DNA of 64,000 nt from a phage, in the sequence record PQ374922.1. One strand, given 5' to 3'. Every line of letters starts with the position of its first letter. Positions within the stretch are counted from its first letter, which is position 1. The position numbers and the translations under genes are program-made. The notes under the pieces were generated by a model. It saw only the letters and a program-made list of their open reading frames with translations, was not told where the DNA came from and ran no database searches. Shown one piece after another: positions 3,109 through 57,562 of this stretch.

Positions 3109-3875
3109 TCCCTAAATACCCCCATCATCCATGGGGGTATTTTCTTATGAACACACAGATCTATGACGCCCTATCACAGGGCAACGCCTTTACCAATCCT
3201 CTCCCGTCCCTCAGCAGCGCCTCACAGGGGTTAATCACCAGTGGTAAGGCGACTACAGCGTCACTGGCTAACACCGGAAATGCGCAGATTCAGGAAGCGC
3301 TGACGGCAGGTGGGTTGACTACAGCCAAACTCAACGAATCTACAGCAATGTTCAACTCAGCCAACAACAGCATCACTACTTTGAACAACTATGGCGACCA
3401 GTCAGTGAACGAGGCATATTCCCGCATCGGTACATCTGTGTCGTATAAGTCCGCCCTGAAGTCTATAGGTCGAGAACCGAACAACTGTGATCTGATCAAT
3501 AATGCATTTGGGGTTATTCAGAACCTCGGCAAACAGTGGATCAACACCATGCAAAGTGTTCTCACAACTATCACAAACAAGATGAATGAGCTGGCTGAGT
3601 TGGTAGCTCAGGGTGTCAGTGCTGGTCTTGATGCTATTCGGGCACTGGCTGCTGAAGTTACTCAAGCCATCGACACTGCTGTCGCATCAGTAGCCTCTAT
3701 TGCTCAGGACATCACGAACGGTATTGCAGCAGAGTTAGCCCATATCCAAGACATGGTTGGTAAGTGTCTTAACTTCTCTTTTGCCAACGTGATCTCAGAG
3801 TGGGCGAAAGATATCTGCGCCGGAGGTGTCATCAACAGCATTGGTTCCGATAATCTGAAGAACGCGCTGAAGTAA
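3105..3875 (+). CDS. hypothetical protein, Ala/Ser/Thr-rich (256 aa)
   Basis: Long ORF, alternative start at 3147; no motif recognised. Confidence 0.5.
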   Translation: MIPKYPHHPWGYFLMNTQIYDALSQGNAFTNPLPSLSSASQGLITSGKATTASLANTGNAQIQEALTAGGLTTAKLNESTAMFNSANNSITTLNNYGDQSVNEAYSRIGTSVSYKSALKSIGREPNNCDLINNAFGVIQNLGKQWINTMQSVLTTITNKMNELAELVAQGVSAGLDAIRALAAEVTQAIDTAVASVASIAQDITNGIAAELAHIQDMVGKCLNFSFANVISEWAKDICAGGVINSIGSDNLKNALK

Positions 3876-5565: not shown

Positions 5566-6312
5566 ATGGCATCCCTCCAAGATCTACGCAAGCTGAACGA
5601 CTTCGAAAACCGTCATTACACATTCCAGCAATACGAACTTCCTTACAAGGAACTGGAGTGTGTTACGACGGAGAATGGTCGTCATTACGTTTCACCGTCT
5701 GGTGTAAAACTGACATCCGTCACGACTATGCTGGGACGCACTGGAGATCATGAATGGCTTGAGTCTTGGAGGAAGAAGCTGGGCGCAGAGGCCGCTGACC
5801 TTGAGACCATGCGCTGTGCTGACCGAGGGGAGAAGCTGCACCTTGCGTGTGAACTGTATCTAAAGAACCGCCCAATGAAAGAAGTGTTGGAAGCGGCTGG
5901 CGAATACATGTTCATGTTCAAGCAGCTGTTCCCTTACCTGAACAAGATGACAAAGATCTATGCTCAGGAGATCCCATTATATAGCGAGGTGCTTGGTCTT
6001 GCAGGTCGTGTAGACCTTATCGGGGTTTATGAGGGTAAACCTGCTGTCATCGACTTCAAGACATCGAACACCATGAAGACGCGGGGCATGATCGAGGATT
6101 ACAGTATCCAGCTATGCTTATATTCGGTCATGTTCCAGCAGATGTTCGGCGTCAAGATCACCCGCCTCATCAACGTGATCGCCAACGAGTCTTCCCCTCT
6201 ACCAACCGTCATTGAGTTCAACCGTGATGACATTCTGACAAAGATGTTTGAGCGTGTTCGTCTGTATCATCGCATGGATAAAGAACAAAACGGAGTCTGG
6301 CCGGATCACTAA
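5566..6312 (+). CDS. PD-(D/E)xK family exonuclease (RecB/Cas4/lambda-exo-like)
   Basis: Motif GRVDLIGV...VIDFKTS (D...D/E.K core); AGGA RBS. Confidence 0.55.
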   Translation: MASLQDLRKLNDFENRHYTFQQYELPYKELECVTTENGRHYVSPSGVKLTSVTTMLGRTGDHEWLESWRKKLGAEAADLETMRCADRGEKLHLACELYLKNRPMKEVLEAAGEYMFMFKQLFPYLNKMTKIYAQEIPLYSEVLGLAGRVDLIGVYEGKPAVIDFKTSNTMKTRGMIEDYSIQLCLYSVMFQQMFGVKITRLINVIANESSPLPTVIEFNRDDILTKMFERVRLYHRMDKEQNGVWPDH

Positions 6313-6340
6313 ATACCCCATAATCCTTGGGAGATTTTGT

Positions 6341-7849
6341 ATGGTAGACATTCAGATTGTTAAGGTTAACGAAGTCCGCATGCGTTGCATCGCAGATCTT
6401 TCTATCAGGGAAGAACTTAATGACTACTTCAAATTCGAAGACCCGAACTTCGTTCCCAACCCCTTTTCTAAATGGGACGGGGTTGTCCGCCTATTTACCA
6501 AGTCATCTGGTCTAATCGATATCGGTCTGCTGTTTGAGGTATTTAAGTTCTGTAAGAACAACGGATACACCATTGAACTGGATCCGGCACTGAAGTACAT
6601 TCAGGACATCCCAGATGAAGAAATCCGTGACTTCATCGACAGTCTGCATCCAAAGATCCGCACCGAAAATCACGAATATATCGATGCCGAGACTCGTGAC
6701 TACCAGTACGACACCATCGCCAAGGCTATGCGTCAAACCAGATGCGTCTGTGAACTGGCTACGAGTGCCGGTAAGTCCTTTATTCTGTATGTCATGGCGC
6801 GGTACTACAGGCGGCGCAGAGAAGCTCTCGAAAGTCCTCTGAAGACGCTTATCGTGGTGCCGTCAATCCACCTAGTCACTCAGCTGTACGACAACTTCGA
6901 AGAGTATGCACATGGCAGTGATTGGAAGCCCGTTGTTAACACCCAGCTGATTTTTGAGGGCGCGACAAAGGATATCAGCAAACCAATCGTCATCAGTACA
7001 TGGCAAGGCATTCAAGACCAGCCGAAGGAATGGTTCCACCAGTTCGGTGATATCGTGGTGGATGAAGTGCACACCTCCAAGTCTGAGAAACTGTCTTACA
7101 TCCTAAACAACTGCATCTATGCCGACCAGCGCCTGGGGGTTACAGGTACGCTGGCGAATACCAAAGTTGCCGGGCTTCAGGTGGTGGCTCACTTCGGGGC
7201 GTACCATAAGATCATCACGGCTCGCGATCTTATCAATCTCGGGTACGCCACTGACATCAAAGTGAAGATGATCCAGCTGAAGCACACTCCGGCGGATGCT
7301 GTTGGTCTGGACGGGGATTATTCCAAGGAAATAGAATACCTTATCACACACCAGTCCCGCAACGAACTGATCGCCAAGATGGCACTGAATCTGAAAGGAA
7401 ACGTGGCCATCATGTTCGAACGTATTGATGGTCACATGATGGTCGTGTATGATATGCTGAGCGCGGTCAAGCCCAACGTGTTTGTCATCAACGGGGAAGT
7501 AAAGATCGAAGACCGCCGCCGCATACAGAAAGCGATGGAGGATGGAGAGGACATCACCCTGTTGGCATCATACGGGACAATGCAGCAGGGAGTGTCGATC
7601 AAGAAGCTACACCACCTTGTACTGGCACACCCGAGCAAGTCATATATCCGCGTCATACAGACATTGGGTCGTCTGATGCGTCAGCACTCCTCTAAGGACG
7701 TCGCGTGGATATGGGACTTAGTGGATGATGCATCGTACAACGCCAGCACGAACCACGCTCTTAGGCACTCTCACGAGCGTTACAAGTTTTACCTGGCAGA
7801 GCGCCACCCTGTGGAGTTCATGAAGGTGGCGCTGGGTAATCACGATTAA
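6341..7849 (+). CDS. uvsW: SF2 DNA helicase, UvsW-like
   Basis: Walker A ATSAGKS, DEVH box, helicase C-terminal motifs; start at internal ATG with GGGAGA RBS (ORF track starts at 6248). Confidence 0.7.
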   Translation: MVDIQIVKVNEVRMRCIADLSIREELNDYFKFEDPNFVPNPFSKWDGVVRLFTKSSGLIDIGLLFEVFKFCKNNGYTIELDPALKYIQDIPDEEIRDFIDSLHPKIRTENHEYIDAETRDYQYDTIAKAMRQTRCVCELATSAGKSFILYVMARYYRRRREALESPLKTLIVVPSIHLVTQLYDNFEEYAHGSDWKPVVNTQLIFEGATKDISKPIVISTWQGIQDQPKEWFHQFGDIVVDEVHTSKSEKLSYILNNCIYADQRLGVTGTLANTKVAGLQVVAHFGAYHKIITARDLINLGYATDIKVKMIQLKHTPADAVGLDGDYSKEIEYLITHQSRNELIAKMALNLKGNVAIMFERIDGHMMVVYDMLSAVKPNVFVINGEVKIEDRRRIQKAMEDGEDITLLASYGTMQQGVSIKKLHHLVLAHPSKSYIRVIQTLGRLMRQHSSKDVAWIWDLVDDASYNASTNHALRHSHERYKFYLAERHPVEFMKVALGNHD

Positions 7850-24503: not shown

Positions 24504-25190
24504 ATGAAACGTTTAATCCTCGGGGTTGTGCTGGCTGGTCTGGCATTACCCGCCGCTGCCAAGCTGAACTCCACAGGTGATAAACTGTGGTCCGACCTTT
24601 CCTATTGTGCTGGGTTCTCCCAGGCGGTTGCCATCGACAAGTCTGGTTCCATAGAGAACTTCGCTGAACTCTGGAACACAGGCAACGTCTCCACTGCTGT
24701 CATCAATGCCGGAATTGAGTTCAACCGTTACAAACAGGGAGCCTATAACCTCAAAGGCTACCTCAATGACGACGAATTTAACCGTGGAGGCATGGAGGCT
24801 GGCGATTTGATCATGACTGGGCGTATGGGCACCCAAGGCCGAATGACCGTAAGACAGTGCCGTTCGCTCCCTTCTCCGGCATTACAGAAGGGTGTGCAGG
24901 TTGGTCGCCGCCACCTGAACCTTATCAACGATGGCAACCAGTGCATCAAAGTATTCGAATACAGCGCTACGCAGACCTCTGATCGCGTCCTGAAGAAGGA
25001 ATGGCGCACCCGCGCTCTTGGTCTCAGAGCCTGGCTGGTTGAGAACGATTATTACTTTGAAGACAGGGTTCAGAACGGTCTGAAAGACCTGGCCACGAAT
25101 CTGAGCGTGAACCTTGATGATCCCCGCATGTCGCGCGAACTCCAGCAGACTCGTGTTGACTGCGACAATATGATGAAGGAGAACGAGTGA
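24504..25190 (+). CDS. secreted protein with signal peptide (228 aa)
   Basis: N-terminus MKRLILGVVLAGLALPAAA; AAGGAG RBS. Confidence 0.55.
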   Translation: MKRLILGVVLAGLALPAAAKLNSTGDKLWSDLSYCAGFSQAVAIDKSGSIENFAELWNTGNVSTAVINAGIEFNRYKQGAYNLKGYLNDDEFNRGGMEAGDLIMTGRMGTQGRMTVRQCRSLPSPALQKGVQVGRRHLNLINDGNQCIKVFEYSATQTSDRVLKKEWRTRALGLRAWLVENDYYFEDRVQNGLKDLATNLSVNLDDPRMSRELQQTRVDCDNMMKENE

Positions 25191-31232: not shown

Positions 31233-32024
31233 ATGGGAATGAACTTCGTGGACAGAGGGGAGAATGTCGTCAAATATTTCACGGACGAAGACAACGAGCG
31301 TGTCATTAGTATCCTTCGTGATTGGATCCCTGCTCGCAAGAAAGCACTTGCTGAGGGCACCAGGCTTCCAAAGATCCCCAACTATGTTGCTCTGCAGGTC
31401 CAGCGCATCATCACCAAGATGAGTACCCGCTACAACTATCGCGATTATCCCTTCCGTGAAGACATGGTCTCTGAAGCAATAGTCAACATCTTGCGCTACC
31501 TCCACACATTTGACGTCGAACACATTGGAAAGAAAGGGAAGATCAACTTCTTCTCTTGGGTGACCATGTGTGCTGATCGATCATTCGCTCGTAAACTGAA
31601 TATCGAAGAAGAGCACACGTACATTAAATTGCGCTCATTTGAAGAGGCGGGTGGGTTCGCAGGCCTGGCAGACGATCCCGACTTCCAACAAGAGGTCTTT
31701 GTTGATGCTACAGGAATTGGCATGGACTTCCGTGAACGTATCGGCAACTTTGAGAACAAAAAGGACGCTCAAAGGCAGAAGGAGCGAGAGAAGGTGGAGG
31801 CAGCTCGTCTCGCAGAATCGAATAAAAAGATTGCGAAAGGCATACTTCAATACATGGCGCAGGCTAAGAATACGGTAACAGCGCAGGCCGAAGACAATTC
31901 AGATCAAGACTTCGGCAAAACCCAATTCAATCTGGAAGATGATATCTGTGCGATGGAACCAGATTGGGAAGCCCTCAAACAAAGATTAGAAGAACGGGAG
32001 AAAAAGAACAATGGCGATTGCTAA
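31233..32024 (+). CDS. late-transcription sigma factor, T4 gp55-like
   Basis: Pattern similarity to T4 gp55 as recalled (ISILRDWIP, central helical region); precedes gp47/gp46 as in T4. Confidence 0.65.
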   Translation: MGMNFVDRGENVVKYFTDEDNERVISILRDWIPARKKALAEGTRLPKIPNYVALQVQRIITKMSTRYNYRDYPFREDMVSEAIVNILRYLHTFDVEHIGKKGKINFFSWVTMCADRSFARKLNIEEEHTYIKLRSFEEAGGFAGLADDPDFQQEVFVDATGIGMDFRERIGNFENKKDAQRQKEREKVEAARLAESNKKIAKGILQYMAQAKNTVTAQAEDNSDQDFGKTQFNLEDDICAMEPDWEALKQRLEEREKKNNGDC

Positions 32025-36227: not shown

Positions 36228-36261
36228 AAGGGCACTAAATACCACGTGCCCTTTATCTTTT
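36228..36261 (+). terminator. terminator hairpin with late-promoter-like TAAATAC in loop
   Basis: aagggcac-TAAATACCAC-gtgccctt followed by tatctttt. Confidence 0.6.
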
Positions 36262-36318
36262 AACCCCTGTCAGGAGGCTCAATCGAGCTGCAAGTCGACA
36301 AACATAAGGAACGCCATC

Positions 36319-41388: not shown

Positions 41389-41428
41389 GTGAAACCATCA
41401 AGATGACCCTGGTCAAGCCGTGATTACA

Positions 41429-41460
41429 ATCCCCCTAAATACAGGGGGATTTCTTTTTCT
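41429..41460 (+). terminator. terminator hairpin with TAAATACA loop
   Basis: atccccc-TAAATACA-gggggat followed by ttctttttct. Confidence 0.65.
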
Positions 41461-41883: not shown

Positions 41884-42495
41884 ATGAGCAAAATCTTTAT
41901 CCCGTCACACCGCGAAGGATGTGAAATCGCGGCCAACTACCTGCGCGGTCGCATGAACTGCGGCGCTGTCTTCATCGAGCCAAATTCGTTTGACAACAAA
42001 GAATCACCTGATGCCATCGGGTTCCGTTCCGGCGGTTGCTCTATCCTGATGGAAGTGAAGGTGTCTCGCTCTGATTTCCTTACCGACAAGAAGAAGCCCC
42101 ATCGGATGGACCCCACAACAGGTATGGGCGCATACCGCTTTTATGTCTGCCCTCAGGAAGTAATCAGGGTTGAAGACCTACCACCAAAGTGGGGGTTGTT
42201 CTACTTCACACCCCGCAAGTCCCTGATGCCAGTTCATGTGCCAGACATGCAGTACTCTTCATTGTCATCACCGGAGCATTATCAGAAGTACCTTGATGAA
42301 CAGATCAAGAGAGGAAGAACCGTTACCCGGCATATGCGCAGCTACATGGAACTCCTCGACGGCTTCGCCCACTTTGAGCGCAACATGGCTGGGGAACAGA
42401 ATATCCTGTATGGGGCTTGGCGTCAACTGTGTATAGCTCAAAGTCGTGGTGTAGACTATACTGTGACCGAAGTGTTCCAGAGGCCGAAGATCTAA
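41884..42495 (+). CDS. PD-(D/E)xK nuclease-fold protein
   Basis: Core motif SPDAIGF...ILMEVKVSRSD; AAAGGAAAGGA RBS. Confidence 0.5.
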   Translation: MSKIFIPSHREGCEIAANYLRGRMNCGAVFIEPNSFDNKESPDAIGFRSGGCSILMEVKVSRSDFLTDKKKPHRMDPTTGMGAYRFYVCPQEVIRVEDLPPKWGLFYFTPRKSLMPVHVPDMQYSSLSSPEHYQKYLDEQIKRGRTVTRHMRSYMELLDGFAHFERNMAGEQNILYGAWRQLCIAQSRGVDYTVTEVFQRPKI

Positions 42496-43151
42496 TGAAC
42501 TATCAAAAAATTCATGACGCTATAATAACCAGAGCCAGAGATAGAATTTTAACTGGTTACAAGGAAAAACACCACGTCATCCCTCTATCTCTTGGTGGTG
42601 AAGACAGGAACTACAATAAAGTTTCTCTCACAGCATCTGAACATTATATTATTCATCTTCTGTTGGCCAAAATTCACGGCGGGGTAATGGTCAGCGCATT
42701 TAAAAAGATGCGCCACTTGACCTCTAATCCTCCAAACAATAAAGAGTTTGCCGTCAGGAGGGAATTGTTGTGTACAACAGCCGGGGAGAAAGCGAAAGAT
42801 CCACAAAAACGGAAAAGGCATTCTCTGAAAATGAAGGGTAGAAACCATACAGAATCTGCCAAATTATCAATATCCAATTCCATGACTGGGGAGAATAACC
42901 CAATGAAGGGGATACCTGCATGGAGGAACCCGACCAACATCAGCCGAGGAACTCATAAAAATTGGTTGGCGGCTGGAGAAATTTATGACTTGTACGTCAC
43001 AGGGAAATTTTTAAGAGTTATCGACCTCTTCAATGCTTGCAAATTGCCGACATCATACGGAACGGTTTCCACCATAAAAACAAAATTGGAATTGGGTTGG
43101 GAGCCAAGGAAAGACGCGGATTGGTTGCAATTCTATGAGGAACACAAATGA
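42495..43151 (+). CDS. HNH homing endonuclease
   Basis: HNH motif KEKHHVIPLSLGGEDRNYNKVSLTASEHYIIH; AT-rich codon usage unlike neighbours. Confidence 0.75.
   Translation: MNYQKIHDAIITRARDRILTGYKEKHHVIPLSLGGEDRNYNKVSLTASEHYIIHLLLAKIHGGVMVSAFKKMRHLTSNPPNNKEFAVRRELLCTTAGEKAKDPQKRKRHSLKMKGRNHTESAKLSISNSMTGENNPMKGIPAWRNPTNISRGTHKNWLAAGEIYDLYVTGKFLRVIDLFNACKLPTSYGTVSTIKTKLELGWEPRKDADWLQFYEEHK
42495..43151 (+). mobile_element. free-standing homing endonuclease gene insertion
   Basis: Compositionally distinct HNH gene wedged between nuclease gene and primase with overlapping start/stop codons. Confidence 0.5.
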
Positions 43152-44409: not shown

Positions 44410-44606
44410 AACTTTTTACTTCACATCACTTCCCTCTAGGCCTCATTCGACGAGGCCTTTTAAAATACTTCAAAAATAATTTTTTAAAAATTATTGAAAA
44501 AGACTTTACTCTTCAATAATGATGCACTATTATAGTTCACATAGGGCGGCAACACACCGCCGAATGAAAAGTGAAATGAACCAACTACATTATGAGGAAT
44601 TACATC

Positions 44607-45095
44607 ATGGCTACCACCAAAACTCTGATCACCAACGGCACCATCTCTTTCGAACTGAACACCGAAGTTGCTAAAGTTGAAATGTTCCGCATCGCTCAGG
44701 CAGCTGGCTTCACTGGTGGTAAAACTTCCTTCATGAACCTGCTGAACGGTAAAGTGAAATCGACAAACGGCTTCACCCTGGTAGAGCAGGTTGTGGTTGA
44801 CAAAGCTGTGGTTGATAAGACTGCCGACAAAGTTGGTATGCTGAAAAACCTGGGTCACGACATCCACATTGTCGAAGCAAACACCGAAACTTACGGCACC
44901 ATCGTAGTCGGTAAAGGTCGCATCCAGCTGAACCCGCTGAACAACGGTTCCTTCTCTGTGATGGTCTTCCCTAAGAAGGGATATGACAACACCGACATCG
45001 TGAAAGCTGTTGGCGGCGAAGCAAAAGCTCAGTACGTCAAAATGGGTAAACTGAGCGCCGACGCAGTTGAAGCTCTGGTGAGCAAACTGGCCTAA
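44607..45095 (+). CDS. hypothetical protein (162 aa), likely highly expressed
   Basis: Near-ideal E. coli-optimal codon usage; GAGGAA RBS. Confidence 0.6.
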   Translation: MATTKTLITNGTISFELNTEVAKVEMFRIAQAAGFTGGKTSFMNLLNGKVKSTNGFTLVEQVVVDKAVVDKTADKVGMLKNLGHDIHIVEANTETYGTIVVGKGRIQLNPLNNGSFSVMVFPKKGYDNTDIVKAVGGEAKAQYVKMGKLSADAVEALVSKLA

Positions 45096-45244
45096 TCCAG
45101 ACGTATAACATAGGGGAGGCAACTCCCCCTATCAGGTCTTGGGAGGAGATCACAGTCATTCAATCCTCTTTAGGCGCTCTCTGGGTTGCTGACACATTCA
45201 GAACAAAGTCTCCCCCAGCTCCTCGAGTAGTTCACTTTCACTTT

Positions 45245-45275
45245 AAATACCTCTGCATTCATTGTGGAGGTATTT
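45245..45275 (+). promoter_or_regulatory. hairpin pairing TAAATACCTC with the endolysin Shine-Dalgarno region
   Basis: aaatacctc (45245-45253) is reverse complement of gaggtattt (45267-45275), 5 nt before the endolysin ATG. Confidence 0.45.
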
Positions 45276-45279
45276 TCTT

Positions 45280-46074
45280 ATGGCCATTCTAAAACTTGGC
45301 AACCGTGGCACTGAAGTGAAGGCACTTCAGGATAGCCTCAACAAAATCGGCTTCACCCTCGTCGCTGATGGTATCTTTGGCAAGGCAACAGAGAACGCCG
45401 TCAAGACTGTTCAGGCGGGTGCGGGGCTTGTCATTGATGGTATCGTGGGTCCAAAGACCTCCTATGCTATTCGCAACGCCGGAGACGCCCATCAGGATCA
45501 TCTAACTGAGTCAGACCTGATTGATGCTGCTAACGATCTGGGTGTTGACCTTGCCTCTGTCAAGGCGGTGAATCAGGTTGAGTCGCGCGGCACGGGCTTC
45601 ACCAAGTCAGGTAAGATCAAGACATTATTTGAGCGCCACATCATGTATAAGAAGCTGATGGCGAAGTTCGGACAGGCTCGGGCGAATGCCATGGGGCATA
45701 TGTACCCGACGTTGGTCAGTCCTTCCGCAGGCGGGTACACGGGAGGCGACGCGGAGTTGGATCGACTTCATGCGGCCATCAACATCGATGAGGATTGTGC
45801 GTACGAGAGCGCCTCTTACGGTCTCTTCCAGATCATGGGATTCAACTGCCAGGTCTGTGGATATGCCAACGCCAAGGAGATGTTCAACGACTTCCTGACA
45901 GGAGAACGTGCTCATTTGATGGCATTCGTGAAGTTCATCAAGGCTGACGCCAAGCTCTGGCAGGCTCTGAAGGACAAGAACTGGGCTGAGTTTGCGCGGC
46001 GCTATAATGGTCCGGCGTATGCCAAGAACCAGTACGACACGAAGCTCGTAGCAGCATACAAGAGTTTCAGTTAA
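45280..46074 (+). CDS. endolysin with N-terminal peptidoglycan-binding domain
   Basis: PG_binding_1-like N-terminus (LKLGNRGTEVKALQ...GIFGKATENAVKTVQ) plus C-terminal glycosidase-like domain. Confidence 0.65.
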   Translation: MAILKLGNRGTEVKALQDSLNKIGFTLVADGIFGKATENAVKTVQAGAGLVIDGIVGPKTSYAIRNAGDAHQDHLTESDLIDAANDLGVDLASVKAVNQVESRGTGFTKSGKIKTLFERHIMYKKLMAKFGQARANAMGHMYPTLVSPSAGGYTGGDAELDRLHAAINIDEDCAYESASYGLFQIMGFNCQVCGYANAKEMFNDFLTGERAHLMAFVKFIKADAKLWQALKDKNWAEFARRYNGPAYAKNQYDTKLVAAYKSFS

Positions 46075-46080
46075 CTCAAA

Positions 46081-46102
46081 GGCCGGAAACGGCCTTTTCT
46101 TT
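46081..46102 (+). terminator. rho-independent terminator after endolysin
   Basis: ggccg-gaaa-cggcc followed by ttttcttt. Confidence 0.7.
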
Positions 46103-52166: not shown

Positions 52167-53777
52167 TTACTCTTTGGTGCCGAAATTACCACCATTGTCT
52201 TTTAATTCTGCCTTGATGTCAATCTCACCCGGACCCGTAGGGGATGCAGGGGTTGCACCTGACAGAGAAGAAGCACGACCAGCACCTTCGGCATATATGA
52301 TGTTACCATTGATCGTCTGAGCGACAGTCAGTTTGTCAGCGATGATCTCAGTCGTTAGAATCTTAGGAACCTTCAATGTCCCACCGACCTCCAGAGTCTC
52401 GCAGATAATGCGCAGAATATTCTGCGCTTGCATTTCCGCTAGGTCACTGAATTTCATCAGCGCTGTGCCCGCAACCACATTTGAGTAGTTGTTGGAATGC
52501 AAATGATAGACCTCACCTGTCTTGCGCTGGACTTCAGTTCCTTTGACCGTCAGGTTGTGGTCCCCGCCGACATAATAACGCTTGTTGAACATCGTCAGGT
52601 CATAGTGGTCTTTGACGGACTTGTTGACCACATCACCATCCGGCAACATTTGCTTGTAAGACCCAGACTTATGCATCCAATGAAGACGTTCACCACCAGG
52701 GGTGTCATCCACTTCCATAATATGCCCAGCTCGGGACACCATGACGTTATTGTACGGGTATTTAGATCCACCCGCAGCCGGAACCATGGTTTCTCCAGTG
52801 TTGTCAATATCCTGTACTCGCCCAGTAGGAGCCGGAGTCGGTTGTTCCTTTGGAGTACGATCTGGGATAGGTTCTGACCATTTACCATTCTGCTGCGCAG
52901 GCGCGGCTGTGGCTGTGTTAGCAGGACCAGGCCAACGATATCCCAAGACCGAAGAACGTCTGAAACGACTGACCTTCACTGAATCGGATTGGTTGCCACC
53001 AATACACCAGACATAGTTTGCATCGAACTTCTGCACAAACGCTACGTGTCCAAATGTAGGGTTGTTACCACGCCGGAAGACTACGATAGCGCCATATTGT
53101 GGTGCTGACAGTGGAGTGCCCCATGTAAGGTAAGATCGGGCAAGAGCGGAGCGTGTAGACGTGTATCCAGCCTGTATCATAACCCAACCCACGAACGCCG
53201 CACACCACGACACTTCATCTTCAGAAGCACCAAGGGAGGTTGTCTTGTGATATTCTATAATGCGCGGGTTGTTGTTGAACTTTCCGGCATACTCCTTGAT
53301 ACCTAATTCGCCACGAGCGATTGTCATCCACTTCTCTGGATCATACCCACCAACAGGTGGTTGTGGATCTGGTTGTGGTTCGTCTTCTTGTTTCACAGGA
53401 ACGTCAGTGACGGCGTTGTACGCCTGACGTTCCACAGATTGAACGACCTGCCCGAGAGCCAGTGGGTTTGTGTCGGCACCATCAGTAGGACTTGAACCAG
53501 TCCAAGTCCAGGTGATGCGTAAATTCTGGTATGCTTCGTCAAGGGCGAACCCCATAACCTCAGTGCCAGGAATGATACCCGTTGGAGACCAACCTAAACC
53601 AGCAGAGGAGGCGTTAGAAGCAGGCATCAGTACCTTCGCCCATGGGAGTTTGTCCGTAGGCAGGAGGACGGGATCGTCGGTGTGTACGCCATATATGCGA
53701 ACAGCAACTCGCCCATTTTGGTCTGGATCGTTGACATCTTCAACGGTGCCGTAAAACCATCTCATATTGTCTAACAT
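52167..53777 (-). CDS. baseplate central hub/spike protein, gp5-like, with CHAP peptidase domain
   Basis: N-terminus MRWFYGTVEDVNDP like T4 gp5 OB domain; Cys/His CHAP signature SWCAAFVGW...FGHVAFV; CATAAATA late-promoter-like element upstream. Confidence 0.6.
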   Translation of the reverse strand: MLDNMRWFYGTVEDVNDPDQNGRVAVRIYGVHTDDPVLLPTDKLPWAKVLMPASNASSAGLGWSPTGIIPGTEVMGFALDEAYQNLRITWTWTGSSPTDGADTNPLALGQVVQSVERQAYNAVTDVPVKQEDEPQPDPQPPVGGYDPEKWMTIARGELGIKEYAGKFNNNPRIIEYHKTTSLGASEDEVSWCAAFVGWVMIQAGYTSTRSALARSYLTWGTPLSAPQYGAIVVFRRGNNPTFGHVAFVQKFDANYVWCIGGNQSDSVKVSRFRRSSVLGYRWPGPANTATAAPAQQNGKWSEPIPDRTPKEQPTPAPTGRVQDIDNTGETMVPAAGGSKYPYNNVMVSRAGHIMEVDDTPGGERLHWMHKSGSYKQMLPDGDVVNKSVKDHYDLTMFNKRYYVGGDHNLTVKGTEVQRKTGEVYHLHSNNYSNVVAGTALMKFSDLAEMQAQNILRIICETLEVGGTLKVPKILTTEIIADKLTVAQTINGNIIYAEGAGRASSLSGATPASPTGPGEIDIKAELKDNGGNFGTKE

Positions 53778-56139: not shown

Positions 56140-56190
56140 CCCGGCATAAATAGCCCATACACCAATGAAACTTCGTTATGGGCTATTTAC

Positions 56191-56781
56191 ATGAAATATT
56201 GCGGAATCGACTACTCCTATGGCTGTCCATCCCTGTGCTTCTGGGATGATAAAGACCCTCTTGATTTTGATCATCTGCGCTTCTACGCATATTATACTGT
56301 GGAGAAGTGCTGCACTCAGATTCGTCAGAACATCCTTATCATGAAGCAACCGAAGTGGGAGACCCCAGAAGAACGCTTCTATAACATCTGTAAATGGGCT
56401 GAGGCTGTCCTGTTGACTGAGAAGCCGGATGTGATCACTCTTGAAGGGTATGCTATGGGCAACTCTAAGAACTCCAACAACATATGCCAGACCGCAGAGA
56501 ATACCTCACTGTTAAAGCAAGCCCTGCGCCGTAACAATTTCGACTTCCAGATCGTAACGCCATCACACGTGAAGAAGATGTTCACCGACAAGGGCAACGC
56601 GGATAAACACGCCATGATCGCTCACTTCGAGTCGCTGTTCAATGTTAGCATGCGCGGTATAATGGATATGTTGGAAGTTAAGGATCCTAAGCCAATCGAT
56701 GACCTCGTGGATTCGTTTGCGATAATGGCTTGTGGCTCTTACTTCATTGAGAATAATCCAGACTTCAACAGAGGTATATGA
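56191..56781 (+). CDS. RuvC-like Holliday junction resolvase
   Basis: MKYCGIDYS (catalytic Asp), ITLEGYAMG (Glu), IDDLVDSFAIMA (Asp pair) in RuvC order. Confidence 0.55.
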   Translation: MKYCGIDYSYGCPSLCFWDDKDPLDFDHLRFYAYYTVEKCCTQIRQNILIMKQPKWETPEERFYNICKWAEAVLLTEKPDVITLEGYAMGNSKNSNNICQTAENTSLLKQALRRNNFDFQIVTPSHVKKMFTDKGNADKHAMIAHFESLFNVSMRGIMDMLEVKDPKPIDDLVDSFAIMACGSYFIENNPDFNRGI

Positions 56782-57092: not shown

Positions 57093-57324
57093 TTATCAAT
57101 GCAAGGGCTGTGGTAACGCGATGACACTGCGTAAATCTATTGCAGATCGCCATGAGCCTGAATCCAACCCCTGCACTGAGTGCGGAGGGGAGATTAAAAT
57201 GGTCGTGGGTGCTCCCAAGATTGTCTCTGGGGTGAAGGGACCACAATCAGCTCCAGACGGCTTCAAGGACGTCTTGCGTACGATAAAGAAGGGTTCGGGT
57301 AAGGGGAACACAATCGATGTCTGA
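57079..57324 (+). CDS. FmdB-like zinc-ribbon protein
   Basis: MPLYDYQCKGCG ... CTECGG. Confidence 0.55.
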   Translation: MPLYDYQCKGCGNAMTLRKSIADRHEPESNPCTECGGEIKMVVGAPKIVSGVKGPQSAPDGFKDVLRTIKKGSGKGNTIDV

Positions 57325-57562
57325 CGAAAAACAGCCAGCGCTTGTGATGACACCAGAATTATTTTCTGAAATCGTCCTACTACGCGCCGCCCAAACCAAG
57401 GATAGTATCCTTGAGACTCTGGCAGCTGTCTGTGAAGAGAACGACATAGACGAGACCAAAGTCAAAAAGATGATTACAGCACCATTGTTGTCACGACTGA
57501 CAGCTGAGTGCTCCGATGCGCGCCTGATAAAAGACGCGCTAAAGTCCAAGAAATTAGTGTAG
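57317..57562 (+). CDS. hypothetical protein (81 aa)
   Basis: ORF overlapping neighbours by a few nt. Confidence 0.5.
   Translation: MSDEKQPALVMTPELFSEIVLLRAAQTKDSILETLAAVCEENDIDETKVKKMITAPLLSRLTAECSDARLIKDALKSKKLV

Follow-up and report, generated by a model that had tools for sequence, protein, structure and literature searches.

The 64,000-nucleotide (nt) stretch of phage DNA analyzed here (sequence record PQ374922.1; hereafter, the window) comes from an Ackermannviridae phage that is 98.7% identical to Escherichia phage A221 at the endolysin locus and is also close to AV101 and LIMEstone1. Its endolysin gene is preceded by a late-promoter-like box that overlaps an RNA hairpin, and the hairpin includes the Shine-Dalgarno sequence of the gene. 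This leader is the subject of our analysis, and its elements are as follows.

45280 to 46074, plus strand: endolysin gene (264 amino acids [aa]; PG_binding_1 and N-acetylmuramidase [PF11860] domains).
45244 to 45249, plus strand: TAAATA, the central hexamer of a putative late-promoter box of the T4 (gp55) type; its ortholog is a "putative late promoter" in the LIMEstone1 record (HE600015).
45245 to 45257, plus strand: 5' arm of the hairpin, AAAUACCUCUGCA, overlapping the promoter box and carrying an anti-Shine-Dalgarno-like CCUC.
45258 to 45262, plus strand: loop, UUCAU (UACAU, AUCAC, and AACAU in relatives).
45263 to 45275, plus strand: 3' arm of the hairpin, UGUGGAGGUAUUU, holding the Shine-Dalgarno GGAGG at 45266 to 45270.
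45276 to 45279, plus strand: spacer UCUU, separating the hairpin from the AUG; it and the UAUUU of the 3' arm form a U-rich tail, UAUUUUCUU, of terminator-like appearance.
45255 to 45257, plus strand: predicted late transcription start, 6 to 8 nt after TAAATA, placed by T4 late-promoter geometry.

An initial annotation of this DNA had reported perfect pairing between aaatacctc (45245 to 45253) and gaggtattt (45267 to 45275), a late-promoter-like element overlapping the 5' arm, and a Shine-Dalgarno sequence in the 3' arm 5 nt before the ATG. The two segments are indeed exact reverse complements, and the stem extends farther inward by U-G, G-U, C-G, and A-U pairs to a total of 13 bp (45245 to 45257 with 45263 to 45275). 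The promoter-like element, TTTAAATACC (45242 to 45251), does overlap the 5' arm. The Shine-Dalgarno sequence lies within the 3' arm as described, but the spacing needs correction: the GGAGG core is 9 nt from the ATG at 45280, and it is the 3' arm that ends 4 nt 5' of it. In a 76-nt context, RNAfold gave a free energy of -19.6 kcal/mol (z = -3.22), a stability reached by 2 of 200 dinucleotide shuffles; the isolated hairpin element gave -16.1 kcal/mol. Across the window, hairpins of at least 9 perfect bp with loops of 3 to 20 nt are in five-fold excess (17 observed versus 3.2 expected from 50 first-order Markov simulations, whose maximum was 9). A scan of 44900 to 45500 with Rfam covariance models returned no match at E <= 1. 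The hairpin observation stands because the structure exceeds chance and because it is conserved in relatives with compensatory changes.

The hairpin is retained with such changes in five Ackermannviridae lineages. Of the 17 IMG/VR loci that the endolysin protein recovered, 16 keep the block TTTAAATACC...GGAGGTATTTTCTTATGGCC (TAAATACC..GGAGGTATTTTCTTATG), as does LIMEstone1, and the DNA just 5' of it differs completely. The exception is a distant 31-kb contig (L018), which encodes the remotest endolysin homologue found (47% identity) and has neither TAAATA nor the hairpin, suggesting that the module is tied to the Ackermannviridae context and not to the enzyme family. In the Miltonvirus phages phiMAM1, 3M, and Kevin, whose endolysins are ~61% identical, the leader reads TAAATA-CCCTCTG-loop-CAGAGGG-TTTTT in the same register, and Erwinia phage Bue1 has a perfect 14-bp stem, TAAATA-CCCTCTGAA/TTCAGAGGG-TATTT, again in register. 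Among the IMG/VR loci and LIMEstone1, stem substitutions pass via wobble pairs (C-G to U-G, U-G to C-G, and G-U to G-C) and the loop is variable. Because MAFFT puts the inner 3' arm of the Miltonvirus sequences in the wrong place, pairing was scored in register with a script and on an arms-only alignment. The in-register count showed changes on both sides at pairs k = 2, 3, 5, and 6, and RNAalifold recovered the helix, with compensatory changes at 4 pairs.

Folding predictions distinguish an RNA that reads through from upstream from the predicted late RNA. The probability that the Shine-Dalgarno sequence is unpaired is 0.00 in the former versus 0.37 in the latter, and the cost of opening the region from the Shine-Dalgarno sequence to the AUG is 15.4 versus 5.9 kcal/mol, with neighboring genes at 3 to 8 kcal/mol. 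Among the 47 gene starts scored, the endolysin initiation region ranks fourth in inaccessibility. The gene starts at 24504 and 28166 have strongly structured initiation regions as well (unpaired probabilities of 0.23 and 0.25), and neither is among the TAAATA sites of the window listed with a downstream gene start.

A T4 late promoter consists of an 8-bp TATA box that precedes the transcription start by roughly one turn of the helix (PMC2988020). The extended box here, TTTAAATA (45242 to 45249), matches the T4 consensus TATAAATA at 7 of 8 positions. In the window, the 8-mer TWTAAATA shows no enrichment (3 matches versus 1.36 expected); only the 6-mer TAAATA, scored by its position relative to gene starts, is informative. 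When sites were counted that lie 18 to 42 nt 5' of an ATG having a Shine-Dalgarno sequence and an open reading frame (ORF) of at least 100 aa, 23 of 54 TAAATA sites qualified in LIMEstone1, versus 2 to 16% for other A4T2 hexamers, and 7 of 22 in the window, versus 0 to 18%. The LIMEstone1 record lists 33 putative late promoters, nearly all nTAAATA, many of them before genes for structural proteins confirmed by mass spectrometry (MS) (PMC3296691). Two proteins of the T4-type late-transcription machinery are encoded in the window.

31239 to 32024, plus strand: gp55-like late sigma factor (phrog_234, E = 3.1e-52; A221 annotation).
57317 to 57562, plus strand: gp33-like late-transcription coactivator (PF16805, E = 8.5e-18; phrog_254).

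The gene for the clamp, gp45, is absent from the window and is annotated in LIMEstone1. From the T4 geometry we infer that late transcripts start at ~45255 to 45257, which would leave them at most 1 to 3 nt of the 5' arm.

The endolysin gene is embedded in a same-strand block of replication and nucleotide metabolism genes; the plus-strand order is primase, a small ORF, a 162-aa gene, endolysin, phoH, nrdA, and nrdB. Three features of this surrounding bear on how transcripts may enter and leave the endolysin unit.

44607 to 45095, plus strand: upstream gene (162 aa; phrog_3764; no assigned function).
44494 to 44533, plus strand: sigma-70-like promoter hexamers 5' of the 162-aa gene; the equivalent site in the LIMEstone1 record is a "putative middle promoter."
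46078 to 46097, plus strand: intrinsic-terminator-like hairpin and T-run closing the endolysin unit (terminator scan); a terminator is annotated just after the LIMEstone1 endolysin.

The sigma-70-like promoter at 44494 to 44533 is a probable source of read-through transcripts into the endolysin hairpin. A terminator scan predicted no plus-strand T-run terminator between the 162-aa gene and the hairpin, and a promoter scan found no sigma-70-like promoter within 45100 to 45245.

We propose, with a probability of about 0.6, that the endolysin leader is a temporal gate of the T4 gene e type. Transcripts initiated upstream would contain both arms of the 13-bp hairpin. In this read-through RNA, GGAGG would be paired to the anti-Shine-Dalgarno-like CCUC directly after the late-promoter box, so that ribosomes would be unable to load, and part of the incoming transcripts may also terminate at the hairpin because it is followed by UAUUUUCUU. 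RNA polymerase modified by gp55 and gp33 would initiate at the TAAATA in the 5' arm, ~6 nt downstream of the box (~45255). The resulting late mRNA would lack the 5' arm and could not form the hairpin; its ribosome-binding site would be open, and it would be translated and would run to the terminator at 46078 to 46097. We infer that read-through transcripts exist and that the hairpin affects translation. Occlusion and termination are regarded as compatible, in that the hairpin would shield the endolysin at both levels against transcription arriving from upstream, and the internal promoter would bypass both. The suggestion of the initial annotation that translation is structurally gated is thus the best reading of the leader, with the refinement that the gate is most likely promoter choice, as in T4 gene e. 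A transcript start downstream of the 5' arm, which that annotation had taken as grounds for rejecting its idea, is rather the expected release route for late mRNA. It had overlooked the possible intrinsic-terminator role of a hairpin followed by UAUUUUCUU, as well as the further modules of this kind in the genome.

The parallel with T4 is close (T4 facts were taken from the reviews PMC3014915, PMC2988022, and PMC2988020). Long early transcripts of T4 gene e form an inhibitory structure, and transcripts from its late promoters, which lack the 5' part of that structure, are well translated (McPheeters et al. 1986, via PMC3014915); soc, 49, and I-TevI behave in the same way (PMC3014915, PMC2988022). 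The gene e leader, TTTTATAAATACCTTCTATAAATACTTAGGAGGTATTATG (TATAAATACCTTC...TAGGAGGTATTATG), folds with -14.9 kcal/mol (z = -3.8). Its arms (AAUACCUUCUA / UAGGAGGUAUU) and those of the Ackermannviridae element are nearly identical, with the common cores TAAATACCTTC / GGAGGTATT, and in both leaders the Shine-Dalgarno GGAGG pairs with CCUUC or CCUC directly 3' of the late-promoter box. The opening cost is likewise similar, at 15.4 kcal/mol in the long RNA and, in late RNA, 4.6 and 1.9 kcal/mol for T4 and 5.9 kcal/mol here. In both phages, the lysis enzyme gene lies among same-strand genes, which are expressed earlier in T4 and probably also here, and gp55 and gp33 are encoded. The two systems also differ. 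The window phage belongs to the Ackermannviridae and T4 to the Straboviridae, and the mechanism in the former is a prediction from sequence. The endolysin here combines PG_binding_1 with a PF11860 muramidase domain, whereas the T4 e lysozyme is annotated in a glycoside hydrolase family, so that the enzymes are set apart by annotation. There is one promoter box here rather than two, of the form nTAAATA and not TATAAATA. The leader here also has a longer stem, 9 nt between the Shine-Dalgarno sequence and the AUG, and a U-rich, terminator-like tail, whereas T4 e has no U-tract.

Comparable modules precede other genes of the window.

3113 to 3149, plus strand: sister module TAAATACCCCCAUCAUCCAUGGGGGUAUUUUCUUAUG before a 242-aa gene.
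56147 to 56193, plus strand: sister module before a RuvC-like Holliday-junction resolvase gene (start at 56191).
6310 to 6343, plus strand: weaker sister module before a UvsW-like helicase gene (start at 6341).

The 242-aa gene corresponds to LIMEstone1 ORF129 (242 aa; an MS-confirmed structural protein), matched by a near-identical leader hairpin and by the N terminus only. The start of the RuvC-like resolvase gene is the least accessible of the 47 scored. TAAATA occurs on both strands of its module, a long palindrome, and the minus-strand copy faces only a 40-aa ORF. In LIMEstone1, ~9 of 32 TAAATA-to-ATG sites have strong hairpins of the endolysin type, where strong means z below -3 and the weaker uvsW and ruvC sites were counted by inspection. 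They include modules before two genes for tailspikes, two for structural proteins, and one for a small membrane protein, as well as before uvsW, ruvC, and the gene for the intron endonuclease I-LimII. A same-strand gene precedes all 9 clear LIMEstone1 modules versus 10 of 19 hairpin-less late promoters in a hand classification (Fisher p = 0.026), and late promoters without a hairpin are often divergent.

A pattern fixing only the outer bases, TAAATACC...GGTATTTTCTTATG, matched 16 distinct sequences in IMG/VR, and all 16 have fully complementary inner arms that differ from one another. Some of these modules stand before a SegE-like GIY-YIG endonuclease gene (PF19835, 5e-36). The TAAATACC-stem-GGTATTTTCTTATG cassette was located in four contigs (L054, 5242 to 5282; L039, 434 to 474; L030, 804 to 845; and L052, 7220 to 7259); its targets are the SegE-like GIY-YIG homing endonuclease, an 80-aa ORF, and a protein whose match to the I-TevI DNA-binding domain is below threshold. 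The cassette may move together with mobile genes. In an arms-only alignment of 20 modules, a set partly selected for forming hairpins, 95.8% of cells are paired and 45 cells show two-sided change versus 13.3 in shuffles (0 of 500 reached the observed value); controls in which the arms were slid gave at most 0.18 versus 0.53. RNA hairpins that occlude the ribosome-binding site, with late promoters lifting the block, are known from T4 I-TevI, gene 49, and soc and from Aeh1 mobE (PMC2988022, PMC3014915). The modules at the RuvC-like resolvase gene (the functional counterpart of gp49), at I-LimII in LIMEstone1, and at the SegE-like endonuclease in IMG/VR resemble that set, but the genes here are nonorthologous and several modules precede structural or tailspike genes within late clusters. 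The RuvC-like resolvase, UvsW, structural protein, I-LimII, and SegE-like endonuclease genes are of late type, and each stands 3' of another gene on its strand.

The U-rich tail raises the question of whether the hairpin is primarily a Rho-independent terminator of the upstream unit, which the overlapping late promoter escapes, with the Shine-Dalgarno pairing a by-product without real effect on translation. This is the main rival reading, and we consider it unlikely. The element does share with intrinsic terminators that have an upstream A-tract a stem-loop set between AAAUA and UAUUUUCUU and a position 3' of a same-strand gene, and the phage's own bidirectional-type terminators (AAAGCC...GGCTTT) are built in this way. 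With the A-U pairs open, UAUUUUCUU comes directly after the core stem CCUCUGCA/UGUGGAGG; when all 13 bp form, the tail is UCUUAUGG. The phiMAM1 (CAGAGGG UUUUUCAUU) and Bue1 (UUCAGAGGG UAUUUUAUU) versions look canonical. In three cases checked in HE600015, a minus-strand terminator is annotated too far downstream, by the exact length of the feature, so the features lying over the endolysin and ORF129 starts really denote late-promoter hairpins; after this correction, the 28-nt factor-independent terminator of LIMEstone1 coincides exactly with the endolysin hairpin. Elsewhere in the window, TAAATA lies within the loops of clear terminators (41428 to 41451 and 36228 to 36262), with the Shine-Dalgarno sequence outside the stem. 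Against this stand several observations. The endolysin stem is only moderately GC-rich, has two G-U pairs, and, unlike an ordinary intrinsic terminator, includes the promoter and Shine-Dalgarno sequence of the next gene. The terminator scan flags neither the endolysin hairpin nor its twin at 3113. The tails of sister modules (UAUUAAACAA, UAUCU, UAUAAUC, and UAUUUAC) are often not U-rich, so that the U-tract is not conserved across the class; what the modules share is a promoter region paired with a Shine-Dalgarno region. In every ortholog the 3' arm covers the Shine-Dalgarno sequence at a fixed distance from the AUG, and the T4 e hairpin, which is nearly the same, works at the level of translation and lacks a U-tract. 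Moreover, the termination and occlusion roles are not mutually exclusive.

We think it improbable that the hairpin is also present in the late mRNA of the endolysin, as it would be if transcription started 5' of 45245 or if TAAATA were not a promoter; the structure would then impose constant damping or await a trans-acting opener, that is, control by dose or trigger. The late start used here is a prediction from T4 geometry, the 25 nt 5' of TAAATA (TTCACTTTCAC) are conserved in three lineages and could hold an unrecognized promoter, and the CBA120 paper described the late promoter of ViI-like phages as unidentified in 2011 (PMC3184105). Yet TAAATA is enriched 18 to 42 nt 5' of start codons and precedes confirmed structural genes, homologues of gp55 and gp33 are encoded, and 45100 to 45245 yields no sigma-70-like promoter. 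There is no space for another promoter in phiMAM1, where the upstream gene ends with its stop codon directly against the box, and Miltonvirus and Bue1 keep the hairpin without the conserved upstream block. There is only a very slight chance that the complementarity is incidental, the TAAATA-CC promoter and the GGAGG-TATTT ribosome-binding region being reverse complements by accident and without function. Although 7 of the 13 pairs do use promoter bases (AAATA and CC) and Shine-Dalgarno or spacer bases conserved for their own reasons, the inner pairs k = 2 to 7, outside both motifs, remain complementary despite sequence change, as do the inner arms of all the IMG/VR matches described above. Many TAAATACC late promoters, such as that of the gp5-like gene at 53777, have no partner arm.

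Some points weigh against the T4 gene e-type gate itself. The predicted late RNA is only partly open, with the unpaired probability of 0.37 given above, and a U-tailed hairpin could stop most upstream transcripts and so make occlusion secondary. Some sister modules have a late gene on either side, so that an early-versus-late rationale is harder to see, and the partial selection of the 20-module set counts here as well. Literature searches found no transcription start, read-through transcript, or translation measurement for Ackermannviridae, and the 2011 statement on the ViI-like late promoter belongs on the same side. The promoter and the Shine-Dalgarno sequence in themselves constrain part of the arms, and on a cautious reading much of the covariation among orthologs could represent a single matched C/G insertion together with wobble-to-Watson-Crick changes. 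Even on that reading, selection for pairing is evident.

Other roles for the hairpin were considered and rejected. The stem is long, free of internal mismatches and bulges, and worth about -16 kcal/mol, and the stems of RNA thermometers are weak and contain mismatches. A binding site for a dimeric protein was dismissed on the grounds that loop length and inner-arm sequence vary and complementarity is retained, and a minus-strand function on the grounds that neither a TAAATA nor a gene lies on the minus side.

The terminator-like hairpins with TAAATA in the loop are of interest in their own right. At 41428 to 41459, AATCCCCC-TAAATACA-GGGGGATT is followed by TCTTTTTC, 5' of gene 41473; the LIMEstone1 counterpart of this gene, ORF078, has equal length and the same upstream hairpin and is an MS-confirmed structural protein. 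At 36228 to 36262, GGGCAC-TAAATACCAC-GTGCCC is followed by TTTATCTTTT, 5' of gene 36319. With the Shine-Dalgarno sequence outside the stem, these two hairpins are, as judged from their layout, a second design: a putative late promoter within a terminator. A matching hairpin is also present at the annotated terminator after the LIMEstone1 endolysin once the annotation displacement is allowed for.

The surroundings of the endolysin gene hold further features. Two overlapping AT-rich palindromes (AATAATTTTTTAAAAATTATT and ATTATTGAAAAAGACTTTACTCTTCAATAAT) lie at 44475 to 44520, at the sigma-70-like ("middle") promoter 5' of the 162-aa gene. Within the 184-nt intergenic stretch before the endolysin, 45096 to 45240 is a variable spot across relatives: LIMEstone1 and many others carry two extra small ORFs there (ORF071 and ORF072), and other relatives have unrelated sequence. 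This spot contains a hairpin without a T-run, GGGGAGGCAACTCCCCC (45113 to 45129). Directly 5' of the TAAATA box of endolysin orthologues lies the conserved TTCACTTTCAC (45226 to 45243; tandem CACTTT), which is present in Aglimvirinae-like, Kuttervirus-like, and Taipeivirus phages and missing from Miltonvirus and Bue1; in the fold of the read-through RNA it pairs with AAGTGAA (45314 to 45320). Farther upstream, an ORF at 42417 to 43151, directly 5' of and overlapping the primase gene, encodes a product with an HHVIPLSLGG motif. Judged by eye, this is a putative HNH homing endonuclease, and it occupies the position of F-LimV in LIMEstone1.

The mechanism has been known since 1986 from T4 gene e, and the endolysin result is largely expected. 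Literature searches found no earlier description of a hairpin gate for Ackermannviridae, and in the published LIMEstone1 annotation the element is entered as a promoter and, separately, a terminator. Beyond the endolysin, what deserves note is the breadth of the module (~nine per genome plus homing endonucleases) and its occurrence at the same functional classes as in T4 even though the genes are nonorthologous. We tentatively suggest, as a possibility that we hold with some doubt, that the family possesses a portable "self-bypassing insulator" cassette, in which the 5' arm holds a late-promoter box, the 3' arm holds a Shine-Dalgarno sequence, and a U-rich tail often follows. Placed before ~nine late genes per genome and before homing endonucleases, it would terminate and silence incoming transcripts, and it would have arisen independently in two families. 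If this is true, the internal promoter of the cassette escapes both termination and silencing, and the cassette serves the same gene classes as in T4, namely, lysis enzyme, junction resolvase, and homing endonucleases.

For applied work, attempts to express this endolysin with its own leader from a promoter placed upstream would probably fail as long as the 5' arm is present. The gate proposed here would extend a classic T4 timing mechanism to the Ackermannviridae, ViI-like phages that are widely used in biocontrol of Salmonella, E. coli, and Dickeya. It would also supply a concrete late-promoter candidate for these phages, nTAAATA with a start ~6 nt downstream, and would account for hairpins that are annotated as terminators and yet overlap the starts of late genes. 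For a different, apparently unrelated kind of lysis enzyme, a resolvase, and homing endonuclease genes, it suggests one regulatory solution in two distant phage families.

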